Part shown: piece by piece, positions 13,501 to 32,000 of the stretch | Numbering within the stretch: position 1 is the stretch's first letter | Layout of the letters: every line of letters begins with the position of its first letter | Assembly (NCBI RefSeq): GCF_000016745.1 | Contig: NC_009483.1 | Span: forward strand, 3,570,001 to 3,602,000 | From: Geotalea uraniireducens Rf4 | Lineage (GTDB): Bacteria > Desulfobacterota > Desulfuromonadia > Geobacterales > Geobacteraceae | Direction of reading: 5' to 3' | Length of the DNA stretch: 32,000 bases | Notes under the pieces: model-generated | What the model was told of the DNA's origin: nothing | What the model saw: the letters and a program-made list of their open reading frames with translations, nothing else | The model's database searches: none | Program-made: the position numbers and the translations under genes

Positions 13501-13848
13501 CGGGGAGAGGGTTTCTCCCCTCGCCCCTTGTGGACCCACAGGGCCTGAAGGAGAAGGGGCGGGGGTGAAGGGTTGGGTTGCCGCAAGGGCAGTCAGGTAA
13601 CCGTATTCCCTCTCGATCTTCAGGTCGGCAAGACGACGGATCGCCGCGGGAGTCAGCGCCGATTCGGGCGTTTCTTTCAGAAAGCGCTGGTAACTCTCCA
13701 TAGCTTTCTCGAGCCCGCCTTCGATCGCCTCTTCCTTGATCTCGATCTGCATGTTCCGCAACTGGGCAATCGTCTCCCTGCTACCGCCCGTTTGACAGGC
13801 AGCAAGGATCGCCGGAATTGCAAAGACTAAAAGTCGGATTCGCTTCAT
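10522..13848 (-). CDS. large TPR-repeat lipoprotein (1108 aa), GltD/AgmU-like scaffold candidate
   Basis: Lipoprotein signal MKRIRLLVFAIPAILAAC. More than 15 TPR/YbgF-BamD-like helical repeats run through the body. A/P-rich C-terminal tail. ATG 13848 overlaps the upstream TGA (ATGA). Confidence 0.85.
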   Translation of the reverse strand: MKRIRLLVFAIPAILAACQTGGSRETIAQLRNMQIEIKEEAIEGGLEKAMESYQRFLKETPESALTPAAIRRLADLKIEREYGYLTALAATQPFTPAPSPSGPVGPQGARGETLSPAWERVALPSPNPSPRGRGQGVLSPFGREIERWIGRVRGTDPQSPLTESQADFEKRTTQSPQLTAKGGKSGGLPEAGTEDLERAGTREAIALYKKLLDKYPLYPGNDQVLYQMSRAYEELGQTEDAMGVMDRLVRDFPHSPYIDEVRFRRAEFFFTRKRYLDAEAAYKSIVDMGAGSPYYELALYKLGWTFYKQELYEEGLQRFIALLDRKVATGYDFAQTKDDLERKRVDDAFRVISQSFSYLRGADSVMEYFDTNGKRSYEDRIYSNLGEFYFDKRRYSDAAAAYNAFVTRNPFHLVSPQFHMRVIEIQMAGGFPSVVIDAKKQFARNYGLKAEYWKHFDPGARPEVLGFLKTNFTDLAHHYHSLYQDPEHAKEKGENFQEAMHWYEEFLVSFPKDAESPAINYQLADLLLENRSFARAALEYEKTAYGYPSHEKSSAAGYAAIYAYREQLRTAVPEEKDKVKRETVRSSLKFAETYPKHEKAAIVLGAAADDLYDMKDYEQGLAAARKLIEVFPGADQEVLKSAWIVVGHSCYDLKRYAEGEAAYVKVLALLPAEDKSRASFMDNLAASIYKQGEQANALKDYRAAADHFLRVGRMASTSKIRVNAEYDAAAALIQLKDWKMAATVLVGFRDLFPGHQLQPEVTRKIAYVYKEDGKLSLAADEYERVEREFKDEEVRRGALMLAAELHQQTGNSKQALAVYRRFVGSFPQPVEVNLEMRNKIAEILKAENDQKNYLDELNEIVAIDAAAGQARTPRTRYLGGKAALVFAEQTYDRFTEVRLVKPFEANLRKKKELMKVTTQAFNKLVEYEVGEVTAAATFYLAEIYAHFSKALTESERPDGLNAQETQEYELAIEEQAYPFEEKAIQIHEKNLELISMGIYNPWIDRSLERLARLVPARYDKPEVPTEIVASLETYSFEIERQAPPAPQAAPAAPAAPAVRVEAPAADPSPAAQGEKPTEAVPQKKATSKQAAAVSPRAKGKKHGKRAKK
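13387..13520. repeat. cluster of GC-rich perfect palindromes embedded in frame in the 1108-aa CDS
   Basis: Three inner hairpins: TCTCTCTCCC-gaa-GGGAGAGAGA (13416-13438), CCCTCTCCC-tct-GGGAGAGGG (13447-13467), and CCCTCTCCC-acgcc-GGGGAGAGGG (13488-13511). An outer inverted repeat CCCTCACCC/GGGTGAGGG (13389-13397/13471-13479) encloses the first two. The region encodes residues ~110-155 (...LPSPNPSPRGRGQGVLSPFGREIERW...). Confidence 0.8.
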
Positions 13849-19400: not shown

Positions 19401-21544
19401 TCGATCTGATCGATCACCCACAACGGTTGGGGCGTGGTCTCGTCGAAGTTGCCGTTGGCATCGTAAACGCGGACCAGATATTTAAGCTCCCGGACCGGGG
19501 CCGAAAAAGATTCGAAACCGGCCCGCCATTCCGCCATCCCTTCGCCATTCATGGGGATGACGGCCACGGCGGTGTCGTTGACGGACCGGGCCTCGTCGAA
19601 GACCCTGACCTCCGCCCGCTTGATGAAGCTGTGGTAGTTGGTGTAGAGGCGGAAGCGGACCAGGTTCTCGGCAAACTCGGTCTCGGTCAGGTCCTGATAG
19701 CGGATGCTGCGCGGCCAGGCGGTCACGTTCAGCCGGGGCTCCGTCCTGAGGTTGTCGTACTTGAACTCAATCTGTGCCCGATCGAGGGCCACGTCGGTGC
19801 AGCGCTGCACGTCCGGGATGCTCTTGTTCGGGTCGTCGACCTGCCTGCCGTCGACCGAGATCCGCATGAGATTGAGGGCGAAGGGGTTGGCCGTGTTCAC
19901 CTCGCGGGACATGCGGACGATGTCCACCCCCTCGTAGTCATTGAGGGCGACAAGCTCGTCATAGATGATCTGCACCTCGACCCGCGAGACAGCCGACTCG
20001 GTGAATCCGGTATTGACCACGTCGCTGGACTGGACATAGCCCCGGCCTTCGAACTCCGCCTGTTTCCCGCCCGGTCCCATCTTCTCGCTCACCGCGGTCA
20101 TGGCCCGGCGGGCGCGCGCCGTGGACCAGCCGATATCGTCGCCGTAGATCGCGGCGGTGCGCCGGTCGAGCCGCTCGTTGCTGATATAGCCGACAAAGCG
20201 CAGGCGGACGTTCGTCCTCTCCTTGATCTCGTCCATAAGCTGCCGCAACCGTTCGGTATAGCCGTCGTGCAGAGACGGGTTCCCGTTCTGGAACAGGATC
20301 GGAGCAATCGCGCCCGACGGCGGGTCGTAGACCCTGGTGACCGTTTCGGCGCCCGCATCCTCCGGACAGAGCTGCGGCTCATCGGGCAGCTCCTGAAGCG
20401 GATCGTCGTGCCAGAACTCGACCTCAACGCGCCGGTTCATGGCCCTCCCCTGGGTTGTGTCGTTGGAGGCCACGGGCTGCGAAGCTCCCTTGCCGTCGCT
20501 TTCGACCGCAACATTGGCCTCCTTCAGGCCGTCGTGGACGGCAAGGGCAACGCGCCGGGCCACCGCCTTCGACAGCCCAGCCTGGTCGCCATAGATACGC
20601 TCGTCGCGCCCTTCCAGCGGGGCATTGTCGCTATAGGCGATGAACTTGACGACAATATTCTCCTTGCCGCGCAGATTGATCAGCGCCTGCCTGATCTGTT
20701 GCAGGAACTCTTCCGGCACGGTCACCATGGCCGCGTCGTAGTGCATGGGCGCGATCAGGTTCTTGACACGGACGCGATGGGAATGGCCTTCCTTGTAACG
20801 CATCTTGCAGACCGTCTCGGTGCGGCAGACCTTGACGCGGTTCACCTGCCGGGAAACGATCACGTCCTTTTCCACCATCTTTTCGCCGATCTCGTCATAC
20901 CAGACCTCAACCTCCACCCGCCGGTTGAGCGCCCGGCCGTCCTCGGTGGCATTGCCGGCGACCGGCTTGCTCTCCCCCACCCCTTCATAGGAGATGGCTT
21001 CCGGAGGAAGACCGAGGGCGCGCTGGCAATATTCGGCGGTGGTGCCCGCCCGTTCCCGGGACAGGCCGGTATTGTCGCCGTATTTCGCTTTCAGGGGATC
21101 GCTGAGCGACTGGGGGTCGGCGTGGCCGACAAAGTGAAGACGCACATTGAGGCGGCCGCGCATCTTTTCGAGCACGCCCCGCAGAAGCGCCACATACTCG
21201 TCGGGAATGTCGGCCTCACCGGTGCGGAAACGGATAGGGGGGACCACATTCGCCAGTTTGATCGTCTTCACTTCCTTTTCAGCGACCCGGCGTTTTTCCG
21301 TGCGGTCCCCCTGATCCTCCGCAAAAACGGACGGATCAAGAAGCCACGGAGTGAGGGCCTGGTCCTTAGGCAGGTGCGTTTCGGTCGTTTCGCCGCTGGC
21401 AGCAGCCTCTCTCGTTCCCGCGGCCGTTTTCACGGTCTCCGCAGGTGCAGTTTCGGCGCAGACGACGGTCTTCGCTCCGGCTACCGACACAAGAAAGAAA
21501 AATATAAGGACGATACAGCGCTTCACCATTGCTCCCATCTGCAT
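16424..21544 (-). CDS. giant outer-membrane protein: signal peptide, three OmpA_C-like domains, Ig/CarboxypepD_reg-like middle, C-terminal beta-barrel-like region
   Basis: 1706-aa ORF. Signal peptide-like MVKRCIVLIFFFLVSVAGA. Three OmpA-like modules each end in NRRVEVE(V/F)W or SRVEVQIIY (~nt 19940-21250). The last ~700 aa show alternating-hydrophobic, aromatic-rich strand periodicity. The exact start is ambiguous (ATG 21544, 21538 or 21529). Confidence 0.85.
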   Translation of the reverse strand: MQMGAMVKRCIVLIFFFLVSVAGAKTVVCAETAPAETVKTAAGTREAAASGETTETHLPKDQALTPWLLDPSVFAEDQGDRTEKRRVAEKEVKTIKLANVVPPIRFRTGEADIPDEYVALLRGVLEKMRGRLNVRLHFVGHADPQSLSDPLKAKYGDNTGLSRERAGTTAEYCQRALGLPPEAISYEGVGESKPVAGNATEDGRALNRRVEVEVWYDEIGEKMVEKDVIVSRQVNRVKVCRTETVCKMRYKEGHSHRVRVKNLIAPMHYDAAMVTVPEEFLQQIRQALINLRGKENIVVKFIAYSDNAPLEGRDERIYGDQAGLSKAVARRVALAVHDGLKEANVAVESDGKGASQPVASNDTTQGRAMNRRVEVEFWHDDPLQELPDEPQLCPEDAGAETVTRVYDPPSGAIAPILFQNGNPSLHDGYTERLRQLMDEIKERTNVRLRFVGYISNERLDRRTAAIYGDDIGWSTARARRAMTAVSEKMGPGGKQAEFEGRGYVQSSDVVNTGFTESAVSRVEVQIIYDELVALNDYEGVDIVRMSREVNTANPFALNLMRISVDGRQVDDPNKSIPDVQRCTDVALDRAQIEFKYDNLRTEPRLNVTAWPRSIRYQDLTETEFAENLVRFRLYTNYHSFIKRAEVRVFDEARSVNDTAVAVIPMNGEGMAEWRAGFESFSAPVRELKYLVRVYDANGNFDETTPQPLWVIDQIDPSVAKADTGTELLAGYGGSRIAQRNIPLSGGTVQAYGSAIPAEHRVWLAGYPGPVDGKGRFIAEEILPKGMHTVEVAVLDKSGNGQLFLRDLALKKNDWFTVGIADLTLSANKTSGPAKLLAPDKPQYSNDFDAQGRLAFYTKGQFGNGWGLTASADTREGPLDEIFSNFLEKSPQALFRRIDPDYHFPTYGDDSTVVEDAPTSGKFYVKLKKDDSYGLWGNFRVGYTDNDLAHVDRGLYGGNLHYQPPGVTSFGEKRFMVDGFAADPGTVAGRDEFRGTGGSLYFLRRQDILQGSERVRIEVRDKDSGIVLGVKNLTPVLDYDVDYLQGRLLLTQPLDSTAADNLLVHSDSTGGNPVFLVVRYEFTPGVEDLDAMTFGGRAHYWIGDYVKVGVTGNQGNDGGNDESLVGADVTVRKSANTWVKLETGRSKGSDLFTTNSLDGGFNHSTIQTPADPRTAATAYRVDVSAGLQDFNKNWRGRFTLYNQVLGAGYSAPGQVADQDTSQIGGTAELPVTDRLGLHLKADKRTVDKGLDTQSAELNANYQMNEHWTLSLGARRDSREDHSPVVPLTQEEGDRTDVVGKVLYDSKARWNSYLFAQKSVQTTGNREENDRIGVGGAYRVTGRFKLNGEISEGNLGTAGRLGTEYLYSDRTTIYLNYALENERTDNGVQANKGTLTSGFRTRYSDSASVYGEERYTHGDVPTGLMHSYGVDLAPTDRLNLGAKTEFGTLQDNLTGAKIKRTAVGVNAGYGFAKLKITSALEFRVDDSEQPDTSTVERTTWLLKNSFKYQLTPDWRLIGKFDYSQSTSSQGQFYDGSYTEAVVGYAYRPVNNDRLNALFKYTFFYNVPAAQQINGTFTSAGVLQRSHIASVDVMYDLTPRWTVGGKYAYRLGQVSMDRVDPEYFDSRAHLYVVRADWHFLHKWDGLVEGRMLDLPDAHDRRSGVLLGLYRHLGDHVKVGAGYNFSDFSDDLTDLSYRHQGVFINIVGTI

Positions 21545-21831: not shown

Positions 21832-24800
21832 TCACGGCGGCGACCCACGGCGCCAGAAGACCTCGGTTTCGATGGTGAGCGGGTATCCGCCGTCCCATTT
21901 TCCGGTGATCTCCTTCTTCAGCGCCTTGAGGCGGTCCTCTGCCACCCCTCTGTTCTCGGTGTCCGCCAGATACGACAACCGCAGCACCGAGGGGGCTTTC
22001 CGCAATTCTTTCAGCAAGAGACCGATCCTCGGCTGCCACTGCATCCGCAGCTTCGTGCTCTTCGGTTCGAACACCCCATCGGCGATGTCCAGTGACACCA
22101 CGTGGTGGATGGTTGCGCCGAAGTTGAAACGGAGCATCTTGCCGCGCGTGGCGCGCTCCACCAGCGGGTTTTCACTGGTCACCCGATAGCCGGTGGGGAG
22201 GGTGCGGTCGTCCAGCTTGAGGATAAAGTTGCTGCCGCGGTCCTCGTCCGGGACCACTCCGCAGGTGATATGGAACCGTCCGAACTCGTCGGTGGTGGCG
22301 ATCAGACCGCGGGGGGTCACGACGCGTGCGCCGGGCACCCCTTTTTCACCGGGATCGGGATATCCGTTGGCGTTGGCATCGTCGAAGACCTTGCCGATGA
22401 TGTCGGTGCAGTCGAAGTCAGGATCGGGTGTCACGCGCACGGTCGCAGTGGCAACTCCGGAGGCAACGCTGTCAGTGGCATTATCCATCACCTGGGCGCG
22501 GTTCACATACTCGCCCTCGGAAACCCCGGAACCGACAATCATCAGGAAAGTGATGGTGTGATTCGTATTGCTGCTGAGTTGAGAAATGCTCCAGATCAGC
22601 TGACGCATGTTCATCACCGGCTCGATCTTCTGCCCATCCATGCGGGCCGAACCTGCCACGTACTTGAATCCGAGCGGGAAGGTATCGACCACGCTCAGGT
22701 TCCGCAATGCAACTCCCAGTGTGTTGTTGAGGGTGATCGTGTAGGGGACCAACTGACCGCGCGTCACGTTGACGAGCGCTGCGGTTTTCGTGATTGCGAT
22801 CGCCGTGTTGAGCGTCGGATCGATAGCGACGTGGTTGTTGTAGATCTGGCTGTATCCCGGCTGAACGTTATCCAGCGTGAGATGAAGGTAGTGCGCCGTG
22901 CCCGTCCCCGCCGGCACCGAGACGGCCGGCGCAAGGCTCAATGCCTGCGCTTCGCAATAATTCGGCGTGCCCGGCACCGCATCCGCCGGAGTGCCGGGGC
23001 AAGCCGGGACAGAGAACGACGCCGTAGTGCTGCTGGAAGTCGGCGGGACCAGTTTCGACACGCCGACCATGTAGCCCGAGGCCGGCGGCGTGACCTGGAT
23101 CAGGTATTCCCCGCCGGAGGGACAGGAAGGATCGCTGAAGTTCAGGTCGAATTTATAATAGCCGCTGCTCTGCGTGACCTGGCCCTGCTGCGCCGGATCG
23201 TTGAAACAGCTGCCGGCCAGCGGCGTCTTGCTTGATGCCTGAACCATGATCAGCGTCGCGCCCGCTATCGGCGTACGCATGATCGAGTTATACACCACGC
23301 CGTTGGGGGTCAACGGAAGGTTCAGATCCTGCAGAACGCCGCCTGCGCCCACGATGATGCTGGAAATGCGCTGCATGCCGTTGGTGAAGGGAGAATTGCA
23401 CCAACCCAGCATTGCCGTATTCGCACCCGCACCCGGCGCGCGGAAGCGTAGCTCGTACTGGATCGTGGTTCCGGCGTTCGGCGTGACGCCGCTGAAATGG
23501 TAGGAGCCGTCGGCGTCGGTATTTACCGTGCCCACCAGACCCCCATTTTCGTACAAATCCACGGCCCAGTTGGCGGACGTCAGCTCGCCGCTGTCGAGCG
23601 AGTTGTCATAATTCCCATCCTGCCAAACCGAGCCGTTCAGGCTCCCGCTGCCCGGCATGCCGCCGACAGTAACGGAGGTGCTTGCATTTGCGGTCTGGCT
23701 GGGCGAATTCCAGCTGGCCTGGGCGGTGTTGGTAACAACGCTCCCGGTCGCCAAGGTAGCGTTCAACTTGACACGGAACCGCACGACAACGGACCCGCCC
23801 GGGCTAAGCGTGCCGTAGGAGGCGCCGTAATTCGCGCCATAATTGGCGGAAACCACCGGTGAGGTGAAGCTCACACCGCTCCCGGAACCGTTCATCGTCG
23901 CAGAATTGGCGACATAGGTAGCCTGATTCAAGAGGGGGGTCAGGTCATCGATTATCACCACGTTCGTGGCCGGGACCGTGCCGATGTTGGTGGCCTGGAC
24001 GGTGTATTCCAGCACGCTCCCCGGCAGTGCGGCGCCGCCGCCAACCACCACCGCGGACTTGGTGATGGAGAGCTGTTGCGCGTTCCCTACCGCGATAACG
24101 GTCGGCTGGTAGCCATTGGTCGGATTGCCGTCCGAATCGGTCAAGAGCGGCGGCAATTGCGCGGTCGCCACGCTTCCCTGATTGCTGATGATGGTCCCGG
24201 TCACGACGCCCGAGTTGACCTGCACCTTGAAGGTTACGACACCGGTGCCGCCTGCAGCCAGGATCCCTCCGCTTACCCCCATCCCATTGGTGAGCGGCGA
24301 TATGCCGGTGCCGGGATCCGCCACCGCCGCGCCGTTCATCTGCACCGAGTTCGCCACATAGGTGGTGTTGGCGGGAATCGCGTCGGTCAATACCACGCCC
24401 GTCGCAGGAGTCGCCCCCGAGTTGATCACGTTGATGGTGTACTGAAGCGTGTCGCCCGGGTCAACGAGACCGTTGCCATTGACGTCCCCGGCGAGCTGAA
24501 CTGTCTTCAGGGCGTAGACCAACGGCAAATTGCCCACAACAACCGTGGTCGGATCGTTTTGCACAGGCGTCGCAGGGTTGTCGGAGGGTTGTTCGGGGAA
24601 GGGCCCGCTCGCAGCTCCGGAACCATCCACAAAACCCTGGTTGGAGATGAGGGTGCCGGCCACAACGTTCCTGCTGATTTGGACCTGGAATGTGACAGTG
24701 GCGACGTTGGTCGTCGTCGTGCCCGCATTCGCGGGCATTGCACCCGCCGTCGGATTCGCGGGGGAGTTGATCGACAGGCCGTTCTCCAGCGCACTGACCC

Positions 24801-27800
24801 CCGCGCCGGGGTCCGCAACAGCCGCCCCGTTCAGCGTAGTGCTGTTGGCCACATAGGTCGTATTGGGCGGGATCAGATCCCGCAGCGTCCCCCCCGTCGC
24901 GTTCTCGGTGCCGATGTTTTTCACCGTGATGGTGTAGGCCAGGGTGTCCCCCGCCATGACGGTGGCAGTGCCTGAGGTAATATCCTGCACCGTCTTCAGG
25001 ACCTGGAAAGTCGGCGCCGACGTGATGAGCGTCCGGGTCGGATTGGCGGTCCCCGTGACGGACGGATCGTCGCTTAACTGCGTCGGCAACAGGGGGGAGC
25101 CGATCTGCGCCTGGTTCAGGACCAGGGAACCGCTGTTGATCACCGGCGCCAGGGTGACCTGGAACTGAATGACCAGCGTGTCGCCCGTCTCCCCCTGGGG
25201 AGCGACGCTCAGATTGCCGATACTCACCAGACCCGTGCCTTTGGTCCCGCCCGTCGCCGAGGTCAGTGAGGTATTCGCGCCTGCCGGAACGGTGATGAGC
25301 TTCAGGGTCCCCGGCACGAACATGGGGGGTGTATTCAGCTTGTCGAGATCGTCGGTCAACGTGAAGTTCGACGCTGGCAGCGAGCCGACGTTCTGAATCC
25401 TGAGCGTGTATTGCAGCGTCTCACCGGGCTTGGCGTTGGCGCCGGACTGACCGGTGGTCACGTTCTGGACGGTCTTGGTAAAGGTCAGCAATGGCGCCTG
25501 GGTGGTAAGAGTGAAGGCGTCCTGATTATCCAGTACGCCGAGTGTGCCGTTGGTCAACGGGAAGGTCGAGGTCTGGATGTTGCCCGGTGCGGTGACGGCC
25601 GGATCGGCGCTCAACCACTGGGTGGCGCCCGCAACGTTGGTCAGGGTAATACCCCCGGCCGTATAGGGATCGAGCGAGGCGCTGTAGGTGACGATCAGTC
25701 GATCCGTCGGCGGAATTGCTGTCGCGGACGACTTCATCGCAACCGTGAAGGTACAGGCAGGCGCACCCGCAAAGCTGACGGTAAAGTCCGTGCCGCTTGA
25801 GAGCGGTGCGGAGACAGGCGTAACCCCGTCGGCCTGGTAGATCCGTGCCGTGACATTGGTCGGCGCGGAGCCGCACATGCTCCCCGGAGATGGAGTGGTC
25901 ACCTTCGGAAGGAAGTCCGCGAGGGTCGTCTGCCACGCCGTGCTGCCGCCGGTGTTCTGCACATTCAAGGTAAAGGTGCCGGGTGCAAGGGCAGTCATCG
26001 TGCTCGGACCGCTCTTCTGCATGGTCAGAGCGGGGCCGACGATGGTGATCGCGGGGCTTGCGCCCGGAGCGCCATTTGCCTGCGTGCTCGCAGTGTTATC
26101 GATACTGTCGTAGGTGTAGGTCGCTGTGTTCTGGAACTGCTTCCCCATGGCATTGTTGGCGGTATTGCCAAGCACCACCGTGACATTGACGACGATCTGC
26201 TGGCCGGCAGGGATGTCGATGCCGTTTGTGGTGTCCTGAATCACCAGATTCGTGGCAGTGCCGGTATTCACCGGCGTAAAGGCCGGGCCGGACACCCGTT
26301 GGACGCTGACAAAACTCATGTCCACGCCGGTAACGGAAGAGCTCAGATTGTCCAGGATGCGCACGTCGTACATGGCCGTGGCCTGCGGCACAGCCGGAAC
26401 CGTGATGCTATAGGTGAAGGGCTGGCCGATGGCGGCCTTCGTTACTAAAGCCTGCTTCGACAGCGCCGTCGCCGCTGCGGTGGTCAGCTGGACAGTGGCT
26501 GTGCTGGTTGGACCGTAAACCTGTCGATTGGTAACTTGGCTTCCGGCCGGCACGTCCTGGCTGTCGAAGGAGTAGTACGTCGTGACCTGCGCCTGGTTGT
26601 TCAGAGTCATCCCTGCGCCGAGACCGGTGTCGGCCTTGACCTGATAGATCACCTGCAGGGTCTGGCCAGGCGGGATCGCGTAGAGATCGGGGGAACCGGA
26701 AACATCGAAATTCCAGGTCGCGACACCGGTGGCTGAACCATACGCCGGGGAAAGCCCGGGGAGCGTCGCCGTCACCGCATTGGTCGCGGTGTTGACCAGG
26801 GTGATGCTGGTGGTGGTGACACCTGTCTGGCGCAACCCCACCGGCAGCGCATCGGTCAAGACAGTGTTATAGGCAGGCGCTGCGCCGCTGTTGGCAATCT
26901 TGACGGTATACGTAATGAGCTCGCCAGCGGTGATGACGGTGCCGCCGTTCGCCGTTGCCGCGCTTTTGGACACGTTCAGCATCGGCTGCCAGAGATTGAT
27001 GGTCGCGCCGGCGGTCTTCGGCGTCGCGGCAATACCGTTAATGGCGTAGCTGAGCGTGGCATTGTTGGTCAGCTGCTGCGCCGTGGGCGACTGTGCCAGC
27101 GTGTTCTTCACCACGTGTGCGCGGTATTGAATGATTAAGGTATTGTTAGCGGGGTTGTTGTCGACGGCGTTGGTGATGTTACCCAGGGTCCAGGTCAGGG
27201 TGCCGGTAGCGCCTGGCGCAGGCTGGGAGGCCACGGTGTAAGTAAAGTTGCTGCTACCGGTCGCAGGGGTGATGCTCACCACACTGTCGAGGGCCAGCCC
27301 CGTGGGGAGTTGGTCGGTGACCACCACATTCTGGGTCACCCCTTCGCGCAGGGTCAGAGCGAGACTGTAAACGACCGTGTCGCCGATGCGCAGGGTCGAG
27401 TCGGTGCCGGTGCTTGGTGCGATAGTCCAGGAGTCGGAGACCACCGATTTGGCGAGGGTGGTCGGATCGAGCGAGGTGACAGAGGCAGAGGCCGGACCGG
27501 TGCAATAGTTGTTCTGCGAGGTCACATTCGGGCAACCGGCGCCGGTGCGCTCCCCCGTGATTGCGCCGGAGAGCGAGCTCCAGTCCACATAGACGCTGTT
27601 GGTGATCGGCGCGCCGCTGGTTTCCACCACACCCACGTTGTAGGTCAGCATCAGTGTCCCGCCAGCCGGGATGTCCAGACTGGTGTCGCCATTCTGGCTG
27701 CCCCAATCCACGGCGCTGCTGGCCAGGACCCTGGGAGTCGTTATAAACCCGCTGACCGGAACGCCGTTGATCTGCGCTGTGGCCGAGCCAGGGACCAGCG

Positions 27801-30393
27801 ATACGTTGGACGGCAGGAAGTCCATGACGTCGGCATCGTATGCTTCGGAGCCACCATCGTTATTAATGGTGACCGTATAGCGGAGAACGTCACCTGGTGC
27901 AGCAGGAGAGGTTATGGATTTGCCCGCCGGCGAGGCGTAGCTCACCGTCTTTGCAGCGGTCAGGTGCGGCTCGACCACCGTCATGCCGGAGGTGGTTGCC
28001 GCACCGCCGGTCGTTTGGGTCAAGCTGTCGCCGTTTATCTTGTCATAGGTATATGACGCGCTGTTGGTAAACGTCACGCCACTGTGGTTGGTGGTGGTGT
28101 TCTGCAGGGCCACCGTCACCTGGATGACCGCCTGGCCCCCCGCGGGGATATCGATACCGGTGTTCAGGTCCTGGAGAATGATATTGGTAGCAGTGCCGGT
28201 ATTGGTCAGGTTCCAGTTGCCGCCGGATATGACCTGCGCACCCACAAAGGTCATGTTGGCCGCGGAGAGTCCCAGATTGTCCAGGATCCTCACGTCGTAC
28301 AAGGGCACGTTGGTGGGGGTCGCAGGCACCTTAATGAGGTAACGGAACTGCTGACCAATCGTCGCACTGCTCTGGGTATTCGCCTTCGATAGCGGTCCGG
28401 GCGTCTGGATCGTCACCGGGGTAGGATCCCCTCCCGAACCGAGCAGTACCGTGCCGTTGATGTACGGATCATCACTGGAGCCGGACCACGTTTGGCCGTT
28501 CGAGTCGGTGCCGGTGAGGCTCGCCTGATTGGAGATAAGAGTGCCGTCCGTGAGGTTCGAGTCCAGCGTGGCATCGAAGTCGATCTGAATCTGCGAAGTG
28601 GTATTTGCTCCCCCTGGCAGATTCAGGCCGGTGATGGTAATGGAGCCTGGAGTCCCGCCGCCGGGTTGAGTGACGCTTGTTGAACCGCCCGCCGGGGTGA
28701 TAGTAACGTTGGAGATCGAACCCAATGCCGCAGGCAAGTTGTCGGTGATTGTGATGCCATTGAGCGCTGGCCATGTAAAGTTCTGGAGCAGGAGGGTGTA
28801 GTGCAGCCTGTCACCCGGAAAGGCCGTGGCGGCCGGGTAGGTGCCGGTGGTCAGGTCCCGGACCGTCTTCTGAAAGTAATAGCCGGACAGCGCCGCTGTA
28901 ACCTGGTAGACGTCCTGGAAATCCAATGTGCCCGGCGTGCCGTCGGTGATCGTCCTGTCGTACTCACGACGGCCGGCATGGCTGCTGTTCGCGCTGAACC
29001 ACCTGGTAGCGCCGGCAATATTGGTAAGCGTCGTTCCGGATGCGACGCCAGTGCTGTCGAGCTGTGCCTGGTAGGTGATGATCAGACGCTGCGTGGGGGC
29101 GATTTTGGTCGTATCAAGCATGGTCAGGGTAAGCTGGCTGGCTGAACTGCTGCCGCCGTTCCAGGTGAGCGTGAAGTCGGTGCCATTTACCAGCGGACCC
29201 GAGACCGGGGTGACGCCGTCAGACGCAAAGATCTGAGCGGTGACTGTGGGCAAGGGCGAGTAAGTGCTCATACCGGCCGGGAGATGGTCGGTGATCGTGG
29301 CGTTCCACGCATCGCTGCCCCCGGTGTTCTGGACATTGAGCGTGTATTTCACCTGCGAATCCACGTTGACGGTTGTTGCCGAGCCCGTCTTGGTGAGCGT
29401 AAGATTGGGCTCGACGACGGTCATCGGCAGCGTCGTGCCGGGCCATGCCTGGAGATCGGCTATGTCCGTCGAATTGATCGTTTTGTTGAACCACATATTG
29501 GCAGTGTTGCTGAACTGCGTCCCTGCCAGGTTCACGCTCGTCGGGTTGTTATCGAGGACAACGGTGAGGTCGATCTCAACGTTATATCCAGCCGGGAGCG
29601 AAGCCAGAGCCGGATTATATTCATAGGAAAAGACAAGATGCTTGGTAGCATCCGACAGAATGCCGGGGTGATTGGAGAGCCAGGTACTGCTTGCCCCCAG
29701 CGTCAGTGGTGCGCCTCCGTTCAACGGCGTTCTGGCGCCGGAACCCGGGTTCACCAGGTAGGCCGCGTTGCTCACATAGGTAAGAGCCGCACCTGTTGTG
29801 GTGAGATCGTCGGGGATAACGACATTCGCGATATTGGTGTCGTCGGCGTTGGCCATATACTGGAAGGTGCCCGTGGCATCCAGTTTGCCCAGGAGCGGCA
29901 CGGTGATCGTGTAGGAAAAGGGCACACCGATGGCAGCAGTAGTCTGGGTCGGTGGGTTCTTCTTACTGACTGCATCCACCGGCACCATAAAGGCCTGGCA
30001 GGAAGGACTGATGTTGTTGAACCCACCGGGCGCCCAATAGATCCAAAAGTCCGATTGGGTCGGGTCGTTACACGACATGTTGCCGTAGTAGTAAACGTTG
30101 GTGAAAGCGATGTAGAAGGATTGCTGTTGGGGAAAATTAAAATTGATGTTGGTGATTGGGAAACCGCCCATGGACTGCGGAAAGTTCTTTACCGTGCAGT
30201 TCATGTCAATCCCGAACGTGGAGGCAGATTGAATGGCCGCTAAGATAGCGGGGTTATAACCGTCAACGACTCCGCCAAACTGGGAGCAGAAAACGCCCGC
30301 AGCCTGCGCACGCGAGGCCGCACCCAGCACCAGGAGCAGAAGAGCAATGACGATATTGAAGCGAAGTGAGTAAATTTTCATAACGATTCGCAC
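21832..30393 (-). CDS. giant DUF11 ('conserved repeat domain') surface protein / putative adhesin, 2853 aa
   Basis: GTG 30393 has GAGGG 4 nt upstream; ATG 30381 is an alternative. Signal peptide ...IVIALLLLVLGAASRAQA. At least nine DUF11-type signatures (e.g. GDTLAYTITVKNIGTENATGGTLRDLIP, GDTLQYTINVINSGATPATGVVLTDAIP, GELITYTVKIANSGAAPAYNTVLTDALP). Two SdrD-B/Cna-B-like modules (GSVWQDGNYDNSLDSGE..., GKVFDDANANGYPDPGE...). Confidence 0.9.
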   Translation of the reverse strand: MRIVMKIYSLRFNIVIALLLLVLGAASRAQAAGVFCSQFGGVVDGYNPAILAAIQSASTFGIDMNCTVKNFPQSMGGFPITNINFNFPQQQSFYIAFTNVYYYGNMSCNDPTQSDFWIYWAPGGFNNISPSCQAFMVPVDAVSKKNPPTQTTAAIGVPFSYTITVPLLGKLDATGTFQYMANADDTNIANVVIPDDLTTTGAALTYVSNAAYLVNPGSGARTPLNGGAPLTLGASSTWLSNHPGILSDATKHLVFSYEYNPALASLPAGYNVEIDLTVVLDNNPTSVNLAGTQFSNTANMWFNKTINSTDIADLQAWPGTTLPMTVVEPNLTLTKTGSATTVNVDSQVKYTLNVQNTGGSDAWNATITDHLPAGMSTYSPLPTVTAQIFASDGVTPVSGPLVNGTDFTLTWNGGSSSASQLTLTMLDTTKIAPTQRLIITYQAQLDSTGVASGTTLTNIAGATRWFSANSSHAGRREYDRTITDGTPGTLDFQDVYQVTAALSGYYFQKTVRDLTTGTYPAATAFPGDRLHYTLLLQNFTWPALNGITITDNLPAALGSISNVTITPAGGSTSVTQPGGGTPGSITITGLNLPGGANTTSQIQIDFDATLDSNLTDGTLISNQASLTGTDSNGQTWSGSSDDPYINGTVLLGSGGDPTPVTIQTPGPLSKANTQSSATIGQQFRYLIKVPATPTNVPLYDVRILDNLGLSAANMTFVGAQVISGGNWNLTNTGTATNIILQDLNTGIDIPAGGQAVIQVTVALQNTTTNHSGVTFTNSASYTYDKINGDSLTQTTGGAATTSGMTVVEPHLTAAKTVSYASPAGKSITSPAAPGDVLRYTVTINNDGGSEAYDADVMDFLPSNVSLVPGSATAQINGVPVSGFITTPRVLASSAVDWGSQNGDTSLDIPAGGTLMLTYNVGVVETSGAPITNSVYVDWSSLSGAITGERTGAGCPNVTSQNNYCTGPASASVTSLDPTTLAKSVVSDSWTIAPSTGTDSTLRIGDTVVYSLALTLREGVTQNVVVTDQLPTGLALDSVVSITPATGSSNFTYTVASQPAPGATGTLTWTLGNITNAVDNNPANNTLIIQYRAHVVKNTLAQSPTAQQLTNNATLSYAINGIAATPKTAGATINLWQPMLNVSKSAATANGGTVITAGELITYTVKIANSGAAPAYNTVLTDALPVGLRQTGVTTTSITLVNTATNAVTATLPGLSPAYGSATGVATWNFDVSGSPDLYAIPPGQTLQVIYQVKADTGLGAGMTLNNQAQVTTYYSFDSQDVPAGSQVTNRQVYGPTSTATVQLTTAAATALSKQALVTKAAIGQPFTYSITVPAVPQATAMYDVRILDNLSSSVTGVDMSFVSVQRVSGPAFTPVNTGTATNLVIQDTTNGIDIPAGQQIVVNVTVVLGNTANNAMGKQFQNTATYTYDSIDNTASTQANGAPGASPAITIVGPALTMQKSGPSTMTALAPGTFTLNVQNTGGSTAWQTTLADFLPKVTTPSPGSMCGSAPTNVTARIYQADGVTPVSAPLSSGTDFTVSFAGAPACTFTVAMKSSATAIPPTDRLIVTYSASLDPYTAGGITLTNVAGATQWLSADPAVTAPGNIQTSTFPLTNGTLGVLDNQDAFTLTTQAPLLTFTKTVQNVTTGQSGANAKPGETLQYTLRIQNVGSLPASNFTLTDDLDKLNTPPMFVPGTLKLITVPAGANTSLTSATGGTKGTGLVSIGNLSVAPQGETGDTLVIQFQVTLAPVINSGSLVLNQAQIGSPLLPTQLSDDPSVTGTANPTRTLITSAPTFQVLKTVQDITSGTATVMAGDTLAYTITVKNIGTENATGGTLRDLIPPNTTYVANSTTLNGAAVADPGAGVSALENGLSINSPANPTAGAMPANAGTTTTNVATVTFQVQISRNVVAGTLISNQGFVDGSGAASGPFPEQPSDNPATPVQNDPTTVVVGNLPLVYALKTVQLAGDVNGNGLVDPGDTLQYTINVINSGATPATGVVLTDAIPANTTYVANSVQMNGAAVADPGTGISPLTNGMGVSGGILAAGGTGVVTFKVQVNSGVVTGTIISNQGSVATAQLPPLLTDSDGNPTNGYQPTVIAVGNAQQLSITKSAVVVGGGAALPGSVLEYTVQATNIGTVPATNVVIIDDLTPLLNQATYVANSATMNGSGSGVSFTSPVVSANYGANYGASYGTLSPGGSVVVRFRVKLNATLATGSVVTNTAQASWNSPSQTANASTSVTVGGMPGSGSLNGSVWQDGNYDNSLDSGELTSANWAVDLYENGGLVGTVNTDADGSYHFSGVTPNAGTTIQYELRFRAPGAGANTAMLGWCNSPFTNGMQRISSIIVGAGGVLQDLNLPLTPNGVVYNSIMRTPIAGATLIMVQASSKTPLAGSCFNDPAQQGQVTQSSGYYKFDLNFSDPSCPSGGEYLIQVTPPASGYMVGVSKLVPPTSSSTTASFSVPACPGTPADAVPGTPNYCEAQALSLAPAVSVPAGTGTAHYLHLTLDNVQPGYSQIYNNHVAIDPTLNTAIAITKTAALVNVTRGQLVPYTITLNNTLGVALRNLSVVDTFPLGFKYVAGSARMDGQKIEPVMNMRQLIWSISQLSSNTNHTITFLMIVGSGVSEGEYVNRAQVMDNATDSVASGVATATVRVTPDPDFDCTDIIGKVFDDANANGYPDPGEKGVPGARVVTPRGLIATTDEFGRFHITCGVVPDEDRGSNFILKLDDRTLPTGYRVTSENPLVERATRGKMLRFNFGATIHHVVSLDIADGVFEPKSTKLRMQWQPRIGLLLKELRKAPSVLRLSYLADTENRGVAEDRLKALKKEITGKWDGGYPLTIETEVFWRRGSPP

Positions 30394-30424
30394 TCAGCCC
30401 TCGACAAGAATTGCACAGACATCC

Positions 30425-30606
30425 AAAAATAAATAAGCGCTCTCACCTTCCGAAGATGAGAGCGCCTTGTTGTCGGTAAAAACCGGGTACCAAGAGGCAA
30501 ACTCATCTCTTCGGCAACCCGGCTATCCTTTTAGGTCAGGACCCGTGGCTTTGCGTCACCAGATTGCTCTGGTTTTGCCCGTTCGGAGAACGTTTTGAAG
30601 CTTAGA
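30425..30606 (-). promoter_or_regulatory. GEMM-I (cyclic-di-GMP-I class) riboswitch with intrinsic terminator, copy 1, directly upstream of the giant DUF11 gene
   Basis: Minus-strand RNA reads ...CGGGCAAAACCAGAGCAAUCUGGUGACGCAAAGCCACGGGUCC...AGCCGGGUUGCCGAAGAG. This matches the GEMM-I core as I recall it from Vc2 (GGGCAAACC...GACGCAAAGCC...GCGGGGUUACCGA), including a GNRA-capped P1a. It is followed by hairpin GCGCUCUCAUCUUCGGAAGGUGAGAGCGC (30437-30465) and a U-rich tract. Confidence 0.8.
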
Positions 30607-30624
30607 ACTGTTGACTGCGTAAAC

Positions 30625-30671
30625 GAAAAAACCCGCGCCATAGCCGATGATTCGACTGATAGCGCGGGTTT
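30625..30671 (-). terminator. rho-independent terminator after the 54-aa ORF
   Basis: Minus-strand AACCCGCGC...GCGCGGGUU stem (30630-30638/30662-30670, 23-nt loop) followed by UUUUUU (plus-strand a30626-30631). Confidence 0.6.
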
Positions 30672-30777
30672 CACTTGCCCCGTAAGGATGAGACTTACCG
30701 CTTTGTTCTATTCAATTCTGCCAGCAGAAATAACTTCTATTCGCCAGCATCATGCTTTGTTGGCAAAAGTCGCGAAA

Positions 30778-30942
30778 TTATTTCAGGCGTTCCTGCTTCA
30801 TCACATCGGACACCCGGTAATCGGCAACATTGATCGTCACCTGGAGACACGGCGCGGAGAGTAGGCCAATCTCTTTCATGCACTCGGTCAGCTTCCGCTT
30901 CCACTCCGGGTCAAGGCCCGGTTTTCGTATGATCTTCTCCAT
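30778..30942 (-). CDS. small hypothetical protein (54 aa) downstream of tandem GEMM-I riboswitches
   Basis: ATG 30942 with GAGG 7 nt upstream. Product is MEKIIRKPGLDPEWKRKLTECMKEIGLLSAPCLQVTINVADYRVSDVMKQERLK. The longer 89-aa track ORF runs into the riboswitch terminator. No homology recognised, so coding status is uncertain. Confidence 0.45.
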   Translation of the reverse strand: MEKIIRKPGLDPEWKRKLTECMKEIGLLSAPCLQVTINVADYRVSDVMKQERLK

Positions 30943-30963
30943 GGCTATACCTCGTAGACCGAT

Positions 30964-31146
30964 AAAAAAAGGAGCACTCTCATCTTCCGAAGATAAGAGT
31001 GCTCCTTTGTGTCGGTAACATACCGGGTGCCAGGATGCATATCTCATCTCTTCGGCAACCCGGCTATCCTTTAGGTCAGGACCCGTGGCTTTGCGTCACC
31101 AGATTACTCTGGTTTTGCCCGTTCGGAGAACGTTTTGAAGCTTAGA
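30964..31146 (-). promoter_or_regulatory. GEMM-I riboswitch with intrinsic terminator, copy 2
   Basis: Nearly identical to copy 1 across the aptamer (about 31043-31132). Terminator GGAGCACUCUUAUCUUCGGAAGAUGAGAGUGCUCC (30971-31005) plus U7. Confidence 0.8.
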
Positions 31147-31207
31147 TCAAATCGATGAACACCTCGCTCCTGCGCTTTTGAACAAAAAAATTACCTGCAC
31201 ATTCAAT

Positions 31208-31380
31208 AAAAAAAGGAGCACTCTTATCTTCCGAAGATAAGAGCGCTCCTTGTGTCGGTAATATACCGGGTACCAAGATGCATATCTCATCTCTTCGGCA
31301 ACCCGGCTATCCTTTTAGGTCAGGACCCGTAGCTTTGCGTCACCAGATTACTCTGGTTTTGCCCGTTCGGAGAACGTTTT
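31208..31380 (-). promoter_or_regulatory. GEMM-I riboswitch with intrinsic terminator, copy 3
   Basis: Same aptamer (about 31286-31376), with one visible core change (GCAAAGCUACGGG vs GCAAAGCCACGGG). Terminator stem at 31215-31249 plus U-run. Confidence 0.75.
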
Positions 31381-31406
31381 TTCATTGCTTAAATCGAATG
31401 GTTTTT

Positions 31407-31435
31407 CTTTTATCAAATGCCCCAAAGAATAGCAA
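31407..31435 (-). promoter_or_regulatory. candidate sigma70-type promoter for the riboswitch leader
   Basis: On the minus strand: TTGCTA (31435-31430), 17-nt spacer, TAAAAG (31412-31407). This lies ~25-30 nt upstream of the copy-3 aptamer, in an AT-rich tract. Confidence 0.25.
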
Positions 31436-31580
31436 CAATTTTTTTGGCTGAGCAGAATATTTTTGCTCTTCAAGTGATTTTCGAGAAACTGTTTACTGTT
31501 GGCGTGACGTTCCCCCCCAAAAACTGACCCCAAAAGTTGTGTGAGACTTTCACAATTCGAAAGGACGCACAATAGGGGCG

Positions 31581-31629
31581 GAAAAAGCAAAAGGCCCTGA
31601 CTGCGAAAGAACTGCGAAAGTCAGGGGCC
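31581..31629 (-). terminator. rho-independent terminator downstream of the tRNA-Gly 3' fragment
   Basis: Minus-strand GGCCCCUGAC...GUCAGGGCC stem (31620-31629/31593-31601) followed by UUUUGCUUUUUC. Confidence 0.6.
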
Positions 31630-31663
31630 AAAGCTTATAAGTAACTGATTTTAGAAATAAAAT

Positions 31664-31708
31664 TGGAGCGGGAAACGGGATTCGAAGCCGCGACCTTCAG
31701 CTTGGGAA
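31664..31708 (-). pseudogene. 3' half of tRNA-Gly(CCC): anticodon loop to CCA only; att-site-type remnant
   Basis: The reverse complement reads TTCCCAA-GCTGA-AGGTC-GCGGC-TTCGAAT-CCCGT-TTCCCGC-T-CCA. The acceptor 3' strand and T-arm closely resemble bacterial tRNA-Gly, but the invariant G53 is a C. No D-arm or 5' acceptor strand (GCGGGAA) is present upstream. Confidence 0.65.
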
Positions 31709-31883: not shown

Positions 31884-32000
31884 ATGACACCCCAAAATCG
31901 ACAGCGCAAGCGTGAACAACGTAAACCCGGTCCTTTCACTGACAGGTTCATAAAAAGCCTCAAACCTGAAAGCGAAATGTACCAGGTGCGTGAGGGACGA
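31884..32000 (+). CDS. int: tyrosine recombinase / P4-type phage integrase, N-terminal 39 codons (runs off the window)
   Basis: MTPQNRQRKREQRKPGPFTDRFIKSLKPESEMYQVREGR matches the (L/F)TDxxIKxLKPxxxxYxxxDG arm-binding N-terminus of P4-family integrases. It sits next to a tRNA fragment. Confidence 0.6.
   Translation, partial: MTPQNRQRKREQRKPGPFTDRFIKSLKPESEMYQVREGR

Follow-up and report, generated by a model that had tools for sequence, protein, structure and literature searches.

Tandem c-di-GMP-I (GEMM-I) riboswitches are already well documented: 347 doublets and 12 triplets have been listed (Sherlock et al. 2022, PMC9481103), a triple tandem of Bacillus thuringiensis is cited there as validated (Zhou et al. 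2016, cited in PMC9481103), and it has been stated that "one third of delta-proteobacterial GEMM are tandem" (Weinberg 2007, PMC1950547). Geobacter sulfurreducens carries tandem GEMM-Ib (cGAMP) riboswitches, for example upstream of omcAHG (PMC6456294), and Desulfobacca acetoxidans has seven riboswitches in series within 7 kb, with ORFs between them (PMC9481103). For the switching mechanism, the closest reference is Cd1 of Clostridioides difficile, an experimentally dissected transcriptional OFF switch in which the antiterminator pairs the ligand-contacting C (PMC9262584).

The array described here, in a 32-kb stretch of Geotalea uraniireducens Rf4 DNA (the window), is a further case of such tandems. 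As in the known examples, one leader holds multiple complete riboswitches of a single class, every one followed by its own terminator, and a sharper or tighter response would be expected of it; unlike them, this array is split by a conserved 54-aa gene and an invariant terminator element, and in relatives of the locus it reaches up to four units (3+1, counting those before and after the small gene). It shares with Cd1 a GEMM-I aptamer, a long spacer, a self-contained terminator and an antiterminator composed of the terminator 5' arm and the aptamer 3' strand including the ligand-pairing C, a pairing by which ligand binding would favour termination. It differs from Cd1 in phylum, platform sequence, the serial placement of its units and the genes served (flagella for Cd1, an adhesin operon here), and OFF behaviour was measured for Cd1, whereas it is predicted for the window units. 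The G. sulfurreducens GEMM-Ib units have the family, aptamer fold, tandem layout and terminator control of surface or extracellular functions in common with the window units, but those carry A20, respond to cGAMP and act as ON switches, whereas the window units carry G20 and an OFF-type platform. The D. acetoxidans series likewise interleaves riboswitches and their own terminators with ORFs; it combines AdoCbl, c-di-GMP and cGAMP classes into logic gates, whereas in the window array every recognised aptamer falls into a single class, and the other kind of element, the invariant one, has no Rfam match.

The reading favoured here, and one we hold to be fairly likely, is that the region forms the leader of a single unit, with one promoter, two Cd1-type OFF switches, the 54-aa gene, an antiterminator/terminator element, a third switch and the adhesin operon. 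The features are listed below from the promoter onwards, and their coordinates agree with the transcript order given in an earlier note on this DNA (copy 3, copy 2, the 54-aa ORF, a terminator, copy 1, the 2853-aa gene).

31407..31447, minus strand: predicted array promoter (comparative motif, sole match in the window)
31206..31378, minus strand: riboswitch unit "copy 3", the first transcribed (Rfam, terminator, antiterminator pairing); aptamer 31372-31293, switching tail CCGAAGAGAUGAG 31298-31286, terminator and U7 31251-31208
30961..31134, minus strand: riboswitch unit "copy 2" (Rfam, terminator, antiterminator pairing); aptamer 31128-31050, tail 31055-31043, terminator and U7 31008-30964
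30778..30953, minus strand: conserved small gene, 54 aa; SD GAGG 30953-30950, ATG 30942, stop 30780-30778
30626..30702, minus strand: nearly invariant RNA element after the mini-ORF (comparison of versions, fold series)
30425..30594, minus strand: riboswitch unit "copy 1", adhesin-proximal (Rfam, terminator, length-series folding); aptamer 30588-30509, tail 30514-30502, terminator 30467-30435, U-run to 30425
21832..30402, minus strand: giant surface protein gene, 2853 aa; SD GAGGG 30402-30398, GTG start 30393

Unit structure, aptamer class and ligand

The three ~180-nt units are near-identical, as the earlier note had described them, with a mean column identity of 90% in their alignment and spacings of 244 and 540 nt in a repeat search. 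Each ends in a 15-19-bp hairpin and a U-run (hairpins 31251-31213, 31008-30968 and 30467-30435); the hairpins claimed for all three are therefore present, but the U-run of copy 1 is interrupted (UUAUUUAUUUUU). Copies 3 and 2, each with its own terminator and with neither an ORF nor the promoter motif in the 244-nt interval, constitute a tandem in the sense of at least two complete same-class riboswitches, each with a terminator, in one 5' leader. Copy 1 is set apart from them by the mini-ORF and the 77-nt element, whose U-tract lies only 34 nt from it. The 2853-aa gene is the first gene of the controlled operon; its product contains DUF11 repeats, DUF7619, SdrD_B and six copies of an isopeptide-forming fimbrial domain, and the adhesin leader, SD and GTG are kept in relatives. 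ARAGORN found no tRNA in the window, and a tRNA-like stretch was rejected as only a 47-nt 3' fragment.

A cmscan search of the 32-kb window at gathering thresholds returned exactly three riboswitch matches, all on the minus strand (31372-31293, 31128-31050 and 30588-30509) and spanning the whole model length at 64-65 bits and E-values of 2e-13 to 4e-13 (copy 3, 64 bits, E 4.3e-13; copy 2, 65 bits, E 2.2e-13; copy 1, 65 bits, E 2.1e-13). The three units, which had been proposed as minus-strand GEMM-I elements from the letters, are confirmed as c-di-GMP-I riboswitches by covariance model, with c-di-GMP as the predicted ligand, and the core motifs quoted for them (GGGCAAAACC, a GUAA/GCAA tetraloop, GGUGACGCAAAGCC and AGCCGGGUUGCC) were all found. 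The earlier note had named RF01051 as the Rfam family to check; matches within the clan were obtained at E ~1e-13, but the best model for all three copies was RF03167 (c-di-GMP-I-GGC; 64-65 bits vs. a GA of 59), a member of the same clan (CL00126). Each copy reaches at least the gathering score of a c-di-GMP-I clan model over the full aptamer, and clan competition removed three more matches from the clan, each of them above its own gathering score but lower-scoring. With a shortened search range on the window, RF03168 was reported, and clan competition masks the RF01051 score; the near-identical homologue of copy 1 at locus L007 scored 56.1 bits with RF01051 (GA 35).

The units show the two-hairpin fold with a GNRA tetraloop (GUAA/GCAA) on the first hairpin. 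In the unit alignment, the tetraloop hairpin has compensatory changes at 2 pairs, and P3 is mostly invariant, with one pair varying among G-U, A-U and G-C. The C-to-U change previously noticed in copy 3 is real and converts one P3 pair from C-G to U-G (pair 55-94). Compensatory changes occur in P2 and in the terminator, and 10 double-change pairs were counted vs. 4.8 +/- 1.3 in shuffles, with 0 of 500 shuffles as high.

At the ligand-contacting positions, all three window copies (model alignments) and all 42 homologous units (alignment) read G20/A47/C92 in Vc2 numbering, the canonical c-di-GMP signature. A different ligand, either 3'3'-cGAMP as in Geobacter GEMM-Ib or an unknown one in line with the GGC and UAU labels, might be considered because RF03167 is the best Rfam model, relatives alternate among RF03167, RF03168 and RF01051, and cGAMP riboswitches are in use in the host family. 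We take the family name "GGC" to be read as positions 20/47/92, from the model consensus sequences. Model position 37 of RF03167, the A47 equivalent, is an upper-case G in the consensus, and this variant (signature G20/G47/C92) was rejected despite its score above GA, as A occupies that position in 3/3 copies and 42/42 units. The UAU variant (RF03168) was likewise rejected, its consensus having U20 and U92 where the window sequences have G and C. Selectivity for cGAMP goes with A at position 20 (PMC9481103), and with G20 throughout the copies and their homologues, a GEMM-Ib assignment was also rejected. A ligand other than c-di-GMP is therefore very improbable. A G20 aptamer with relaxed specificity is conceivable; the ligand identity, treated as unresolved in the earlier note, is nevertheless less open, since every unit has the same three contact positions.

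Antiterminator pairing and predicted polarity

The complementarity of the aptamer tail to the terminator left arm, counted by eye as 11/13 in the earlier note, is borne out and is not a chance match. If two 1-nt bulges are allowed, it amounts to 12 bp, and its duplex energy of -12.8/-12.9 kcal/mol is an outlier vs. -3.4 +/- 2.0 for all 13-mers of the strand; energies that low occur at only ~7 distinct sites in 32 kb, 3 of them terminator left arms. The tail takes in the ligand-pairing C (C92 equivalent) and the P1 3' strand and would therefore not be free for this pairing while ligand is bound. Pairing of the terminator 5' arm with an aptamer 3' strand that includes the ligand-pairing C is thus found here as in Cd1.

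Among the 42 homologous units, the 12-bp antiterminator (alignment columns 99-111 with 160-173) has 98.4% of cells paired and the terminator pairs 94.6%; left-arm positions 162/163 are always paired in the antiterminator and are mispaired in the terminator in 10-12 of the 42. The terminator left arm is invariant, and the right arm drifts. When the transcripts are cut before the right arm, the tail:left-arm pairs appear in the MFE of 38/42, and when copy 1 was folded at increasing lengths, transcripts of 160-175 nt gave the antiterminator, with the terminator appearing only from 180 nt upwards. The terminator dominates thermodynamically in the full-length RNA, so that the switch must act kinetically, and forcing P1 costs ~12 kcal/mol in the nearest-neighbour model, which ligand and tertiary contacts would have to pay. 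Covariation of the antiterminator in the 42-unit alignment does not exceed shuffles; because tail and left arm are invariant, the support for this helix comes from conservation and energetics and not from covariation.

The units are probably OFF switches, with transcription shut off as c-di-GMP rises, a polarity called weak in the earlier note and supported by the level of antiterminator pairing, the folds of the truncated transcripts and the invariant left arm. Without ligand, the P1 5' strand would be held in a small local hairpin (CGUUC/GAACG) and the tail CCGAAGAGAUGAG would pair the terminator left arm, giving a long antiterminator hairpin and read-through by RNA polymerase. With c-di-GMP bound, P1 and the binding pocket would hold the tail, the 15-19-bp terminator would form and transcription would stop.

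A c-di-GMP-repressed adhesin is biologically unexpected, and ON switches, in which c-di-GMP binding blocks the terminator and the adhesin is induced at high c-di-GMP, would make biological sense. The ON reading also agrees with the common GEMM layout described as ligand-ON (Weinberg 2007, PMC1950547) and with the tandem GEMM-Ib units of Geobacter, which are ON in RNA-seq. However, published ON switches overlap the terminator 5' arm with the aptamer, whereas the terminator here is self-contained and lies ~45 nt downstream, and its sole conserved competitor is the aptamer tail with the C92 equivalent and the P1 3' strand. No segment that P1 formation or ligand binding would free, and that could pair with either terminator arm, was found on inspection. 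An ON polarity is accordingly unlikely, and the OFF polarity is retained below.

A helix of the tail with CAUCUUGG was also considered as a separate switch and was set aside, being best explained by the extended antiterminator hairpin and the full-length terminator state. By inspection, some compensatory-looking changes in this helix are present at loci L013 and L018.

Promoter, small gene and the 77-nt element

A sigma-70 consensus scan found no minus-strand promoter anywhere, even where one must exist, and was replaced by a comparative motif; given this insensitivity, the lack of a consensus match before copy 1 is weak evidence. The comparative motif has one match in the window, with both strands searched, located 32 nt upstream of copy 3. 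It consists of an A-tract (31447-31439), a -35 TTGCTA (31435-31430), a 17-nt spacer and an extended -10 TGaTAAAAG (31415-31407), placing the putative TSS near 31400. In relatives, the motif stands before the first unit only, 13-32 nt upstream. The proposal that no promoter lies between the ORF terminator and copy 1 fits these comparative data, as the array motif occurs only before copy 3. Additionally, in relatives without copy 1 the adhesin start codon is ~20-40 nt past the U-tract of the 77-nt element, and the adhesin must therefore be reached by read-through.

We infer co-transcription of all units in series from a single promoter, to which the one conserved motif and the synteny kept among relatives lend indirect support, as well as ligand-induced termination. 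Starting at this promoter (~31435-31407, minus strand), RNA polymerase would pass two complete c-di-GMP-I riboswitches to reach the 54-aa gene and, past it, the invariant antiterminator/terminator element and the third riboswitch ahead of the giant adhesin operon. Units in series would multiply their read-through probabilities, so that rising c-di-GMP would shut the small gene first and the adhesin operon more tightly. The main gain expected from OFF switches in series is a tighter and more sensitive shut-off, and not simply the "digital" curve proposed earlier.

The 54-aa ORF (30942-30778) is present as claimed and, with 77 homologous clusters of 74-98% identity in Geobacteraceae, is a real and conserved gene; counted by codon position, 23/13/43 of 45 sites vary. 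The protein had no match in Pfam, NCBIfam, a PDB profile search or Foldseek, and its AF2 model is a two-helix hairpin (pLDDT 71.6). The "independent terminator" placed after it is in fact the 3' half of the 77-nt element (30702-30626), in which an irregular 5' hairpin with a UACG loop (30701-30664) has a 5-nt overlap with the left arm of a terminator of 17 bp and U6 (30671-30626). Among 29 distinct versions of the element, hardly any variation is seen in the 5' 41 nt, covariation is seen at the terminator apex, and all metagenome pattern matches (20/20) lie directly after a mini-ORF homolog. Rfam searches at gathering and permissive thresholds gave no family for it, with chance-level matches only (for example a miRNA and the Leu leader terminator). 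In its 5' strand (UCUCAUCC..CGG) the element looks like the left arm of the riboswitch terminator and may therefore derive from a riboswitch expression platform.

The element terminator, counted earlier as a fourth "checkpoint", probably terminates conditionally in its own right. A more tentative proposal, possible though not the expected outcome, is that the 54-aa protein and the element form an undescribed regulatory module, in which the element would terminate conditionally, either as a small riboswitch of a new kind or as a protein-dependent antiterminator on which the mini-ORF product might act, in series with the c-di-GMP OFF switches. If true, expression of the adhesin operon would depend on two different signals.

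The element terminator, a 17-bp hairpin with U6, could also mean that the locus contains two regulons, copies 3 and 2 serving only the mini-ORF, whose transcript would end at this terminator, and copy 1 alone serving the adhesin from an unrecognised promoter in 30778-30594. The insensitivity of the consensus scan leaves room for such a promoter, and a second promoter might be provided by a clade-specific TTGAATAGAA block, which lies upstream of the element and contains a weak -10-like TAGAAC. This block is, however, missing in Geomonas and Citrifermentans loci of the same architecture, and a promoter upstream of the element would still face the element terminator. The array-promoter motif is absent from 30778-30594, and the adhesins of 2+0 and 3+0 relatives start right after the element with no unit of their own. 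Two separate regulons are therefore rather doubtful, and the single leader remains the preferred reading. A sigma-54 promoter reading of CUGGCACAAUUGAA, upstream of the element, was rejected by inspection for its wrong GG/GC spacing.

Recurrence among relatives and biological meaning

The layout of 1-3 units, mini-ORF, element, 0-1 unit and adhesin recurs across Geobacteraceae, being conserved in 24 distinct loci with fully covered flanks and in further partial loci, and it is found in isolate genomes of Citrifermentans bremense R1 (3+1) and Geomonas spp. (2+0). Near-identical strains differ in copy number, with 2+1 (the window), 3+0 or 2+0 units; copy 1 is missing from L001-L004 and L006 and present in L007. 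These differences suggest that individual copies are dispensable. In many lineages, the units of one locus are mutual closest relatives.

Such variation and kinship would also be expected if the extra copies were recent neutral duplications by unequal crossing-over, or assembly artefacts, with no designed function in series. Against these readings, the ligand-contact positions, P1, antiterminator and terminator are kept in every copy, at least two units are present in 23 of the 24 fully flanked loci, and the two Geomonas units are positional orthologues across species. The window-type junction is also found in a second, independent assembly (L007), and isolate genomes have N+1 layouts. Neither origin seems a likely explanation of the array.

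The host family matters for extracellular electron transfer, with different surface lifestyles under c-di-GMP and cGAMP control. The region would illustrate how, in nature, up to four termination points under c-di-GMP control (three here) can precede one very large surface-protein operon, and the differences in unit number and position among near-identical strains (2+1, 3+0, 2+0) would provide a natural experiment on riboswitch dosage. The layout is directly testable because cultured relatives (Citrifermentans bremense R1 and several Geomonas species) share it. The small protein, like the invariant element, is a candidate new regulator. If the OFF polarity is true, the giant isopeptide-domain protein would be made at low c-di-GMP, opposite to the usual rule for adhesins, which would suggest that it serves transient or particle-associated attachment and not a permanent biofilm.

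Riboswitch units and the adhesin operon

Exactly three riboswitch aptamers were detected in the 32-kb window by cmscan at curated thresholds, all on the minus strand and each covering the full model length. The units (aptamer plus its own terminator) share a mean column identity of 90% over ~180 nt in the alignment, with start-to-start spacings of 244 and 540 nt according to a repeat search. The earlier note had described this three-unit array, and cmscan, alignment and terminator scan showed its coordinates and essentially every detail to be correct. In transcript order, with the three unit terminators grouped near the end, the features are:

31372-31293, minus strand: copy 3 aptamer (64 bits, E 4.3e-13)
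31128-31050, minus strand: copy 2 aptamer (65 bits, E 2.2e-13)
30942-30778, minus strand: 54-aa mini-ORF, between copies 2 and 1
30702-30626, minus strand: 77-nt RNA element, found directly after the mini-ORF in every locus
30588-30509, minus strand: copy 1 aptamer (65 bits, E 2.1e-13)
31251-31213, 31008-30968 and 30467-30435, minus strand: unit terminators from the terminator scan, each a 15-19-bp G+C-rich hairpin then a U-run (interrupted in copy 1, UUAUUUAUUUUU)
GTG at 30393, minus strand: start of a large ORF of 2853 aa, with a GAGGG Shine-Dalgarno sequence upstream

A domain search found DUF11 repeats, SdrD_B and six isopeptide-forming fimbrial domains in the 2853-aa protein. Downstream on the same strand (16424-21544 and 9762-15734) lie genes for a 1706-aa protein that carries an OmpA-like peptidoglycan-binding domain and for several large TPR proteins, all of which may be anchoring or export partners encoded in the same operon.

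The earlier note had placed the units under RF01051; the same-clan identity held, while the best-scoring model for the window copies was instead RF03167 (c-di-GMP-I-GGC). That label was rejected because the conserved G that follows GACGC in the RF03167 consensus, equivalent to A47 (Vc2 numbering), is A in 3/3 copies, as in the RF01051 consensus. A UAU (RF03168) identity also fails, since the consensus U20 and U92 of that model are G and C in these RNAs. The three copies also clear the gathering threshold of a second clan member, and a near-identical copy-1 homologue in L007, an independent assembly, scores 56.1 bits with RF01051 (gathering score 35). Over the 18 loci compared (the window and 17 fetched), which hold 42 distinct homologous units, the best clan member switches among RF01051, RF03167 and RF03168, and G20/A47/C92 is read in 42/42. 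A20, associated with cGAMP selectivity (PMC9481103), is absent from these aptamers. Ligand identity, which the earlier note had left open, is thus narrowed by sequence to the canonical c-di-GMP signature. Because G20/A47/C92 occurs throughout and the GGC and UAU signatures are missing, the window units read as c-di-GMP-I aptamers of the canonical type, with a short P3, and they are almost certainly c-di-GMP-I riboswitches.

The mini-ORF and its invariant neighbour

The mini-ORF has homologues in 77 clusters (74-98% identity), for which the only taxa named are Geobacteraceae and Geomonas. In 31 distinct nucleotide versions, the first, second and third codon positions vary at 23, 13 and 43 of 45 codons, and synonymous codon differences exceed nonsynonymous ones (5401 vs 2949). 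These conserved homologues, together with the codon-position and synonymous bias, show that the 54-aa ORF is a real gene. Searches of Pfam, NCBIfam, PDB and Foldseek returned no relative of its product, for which the AF2 model has two helices (pLDDT 71.6). The family is unannotated, restricted to Geobacteraceae as far as seen, and always lies between c-di-GMP riboswitches and a giant adhesin.

The 77-nt element contains what the earlier note had called an independent terminator; the 17-bp terminator stands, as the 3' half of this element. Across 29 distinct versions, almost no variation touches the 5' 41 nt (AGCGGUAAGUCUCAUCCCUACGGGGCAAGUGAAACCCGCG), although the neighbouring ORF varies in the third position of 43/45 codons; the terminator apex covaries. 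The 5' part is predicted to form an irregular, UACG-capped hairpin (-13.6 kcal/mol), and because the base of this hairpin shares 5 nt with the terminator left arm, the modelled element is built like a conditional terminator. A degenerate pattern of the element matched right after a mini-ORF homologue in 20/20 metagenome matches, and Rfam 15 holds no family for it. Within the element, a 16-17-nt module (GGGCAAGUGAAACCC) is duplicated in tandem at three loci (L018 2728-2823, L020 2696-2792, L036 678-772), which suggests that the duplicated small hairpin is a functional unit.

Predicted direction of switching

Each unit terminator is self-contained, ~45 nt downstream of P1. In the aptamer 3' tail (CCGAAGAGAUGAG), C92 corresponds to the first C, and the eight nucleotides after it make up the P1 3' strand. 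The partner of the tail is the terminator left arm, CUCU(C/U)AUCUUCGG: the two form 12 bp with two single-nucleotide bulges, enclosing a CUUG/CAAG helix and a linker hairpin. This duplex is worth -12.8/-12.9 kcal/mol, against -3.4 +/- 2.0 over every 13-mer on that strand, an energy of -12.8 or better being reached at ~7 distinct sites in 32 kb, three of which are the terminator left arms. The element 5' strand (CUCAUCCUUACGG; 30680-30692, minus) resembles the riboswitch left arm and is one of the few window sites that pair with the tail at least as strongly as -12.8 kcal/mol; the likeness may reflect common ancestry or chance.

Over the 42 units, 98.4% of cells are paired for the 12 antiterminator pairs and 94.6% for the terminator. 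The right arm drifts against an invariant left arm: columns 162/163 of the latter pair with the tail in every unit, yet in 10-12 of 42 units they face a mismatch in the right arm. Compensatory changes occur at 7 terminator pairs. When transcripts were cut before the right arm, tail:left-arm pairs were present in the MFE structure of 38/42, and a length series of copy 1 had the antiterminator at lengths of 160-175 nt and showed no terminator until the right arm was complete. In every prediction lacking P1, the P1 5' strand forms a local hairpin (CGUUC/GAACG), for which covariation is weak. Duplex energy, pairing across units, left-arm invariance, truncated-transcript folds and the length series together point to the tail:left-arm pairing as a selected antiterminator, supported by conservation and energetics and not by covariation, since tail and left arm never vary.

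Because the antiterminator takes both the ligand-pairing C and a P1 strand, ligand binding and antitermination would be mutually exclusive, so ligand would favour termination. Bound c-di-GMP would hold the tail and let the terminator form; without ligand, the antiterminator would permit read-through. The terminator wins thermodynamically at full length, and the switch must therefore act kinetically. The same logic, with an antiterminator using the ligand-pairing C and a P1 strand, was established by experiment for the Clostridioides difficile OFF switch Cd1 (PMC9262584) and is predicted here. The OFF polarity that the earlier note had proposed weakly gains support from the duplex energy, the pairing across units, the truncated-transcript folds and the length series, and the units are probably transcriptional OFF switches.

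Array layout and probable serial control in the Geobacteraceae

A layout of promoter, 1-3 units, mini-ORF, element, 0-1 unit and giant adhesin was found in Geomonas, Citrifermentans, Geotalea and uncultured Geobacteraceae.

Layouts (units upstream + downstream of the mini-ORF) among 24 distinct loci with fully covered flanks, the window counted as the second 2+1
1+0: 1 locus
2+0: 11 loci
2+1: 2 loci
3+0: 5 loci
3+1: 5 loci

Two partly covered loci (L032, L036) are also 2+1, and the isolate Citrifermentans bremense R1 is 3+1. Contigs from other metagenomes with flanks 99% identical to the window are 3+0 (L001-L004, L044) or 2+0 (L005), not 2+1. The window (30382-30611) and L001 (3320-3342) differ by the presence or absence of a 230-nt segment comprising copy 1 and the conserved adhesin leader; 3+0 contigs without this block have a third unit upstream instead, and the window-type junction is supported by L007. 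Units within one locus are often mutual closest relatives. A P3 insertion seen nowhere else is common to all four units of locus L017, including the one downstream of the mini-ORF (9 nt in L017_2, 11 nt in the other three), which points to within-lineage duplication or gene conversion between units. In Geomonas, unlike such loci, the two units are positional orthologues. Beside the Geomonas array, one more c-di-GMP-I aptamer, of more divergent sequence (RF01051 score 43-45 bits), precedes a hemerythrin-domain gene (L008 2792-2868, L026 1324-1400, L028 1321-1397, L029 1319-1395).

A consensus sigma-70 scan, uninformative here, returned no minus-strand promoter in the window. Comparison of 16 loci revealed that a motif (A-tract, TTG(T)TGCTA, ~17-nt spacer, TGnTAAAA) is conserved shortly before the first unit. 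Its strict form has a single match when both strands of the whole window are searched, at 31438-31407, 32 nt upstream of copy 3 P1. In relatives it occurs only before the first unit, with the sole exception of metagenome contig L033 (7372 and 7788), where motif and unit are duplicated together and each promoter copy precedes a unit.

Farther upstream, a 47-nt tRNA 3' fragment (31667-31708, minus) corresponds to nt 26-72 of an intact tRNA upstream of the array in L011, L013, L018 and L021, and adjoins the start of a phage-type integrase gene (31884-32000, plus) that continues beyond the window edge. The arrangement resembles an integrative element that has entered at the tRNA, a short way before the riboswitch promoter. 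The sister strain L001 is homologous only as far as 31516; past this point it has a different integrase and AbiEi/AbiEii. Just downstream of the tRNA fragment, a hairpin missed by the terminator scan (31585-31630, minus; GGCCCCUGACUUUCGCAG...CUGCGAAAG..CAGGGCC then UUUUGCUUUUU) looks like a terminator.

Only 34 nt separate the element U-tract from copy 1. In relatives lacking the downstream unit, the adhesin starts ~20-40 nt past the element and must therefore be transcribed by read-through. The earlier note had seen no promoter between the ORF terminator and copy 1 and had proposed serial termination checkpoints; both proposals agree with the motif lying only upstream of copy 3. Given this lone motif, the 34-nt gap and the read-through needed in relatives, checkpoints in series are the likely reading, and we lean towards all units acting on one transcript.

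Tandem c-di-GMP-I riboswitches have been catalogued as 347 doublets and 12 triplets, with a validated triple tandem in Bacillus thuringiensis (PMC9481103), and in Geobacter sulfurreducens tandem GEMM-Ib units act as ON switches (PMC6456294). The array is thus a further case of a known type of tandem. To our knowledge, three of its features appear to be newly described: an OFF-type platform before an adhesin in this bacterial family, the interruption of the array by a conserved small gene and by an invariant second element, and strain-level variation in the copy number and position of the units.
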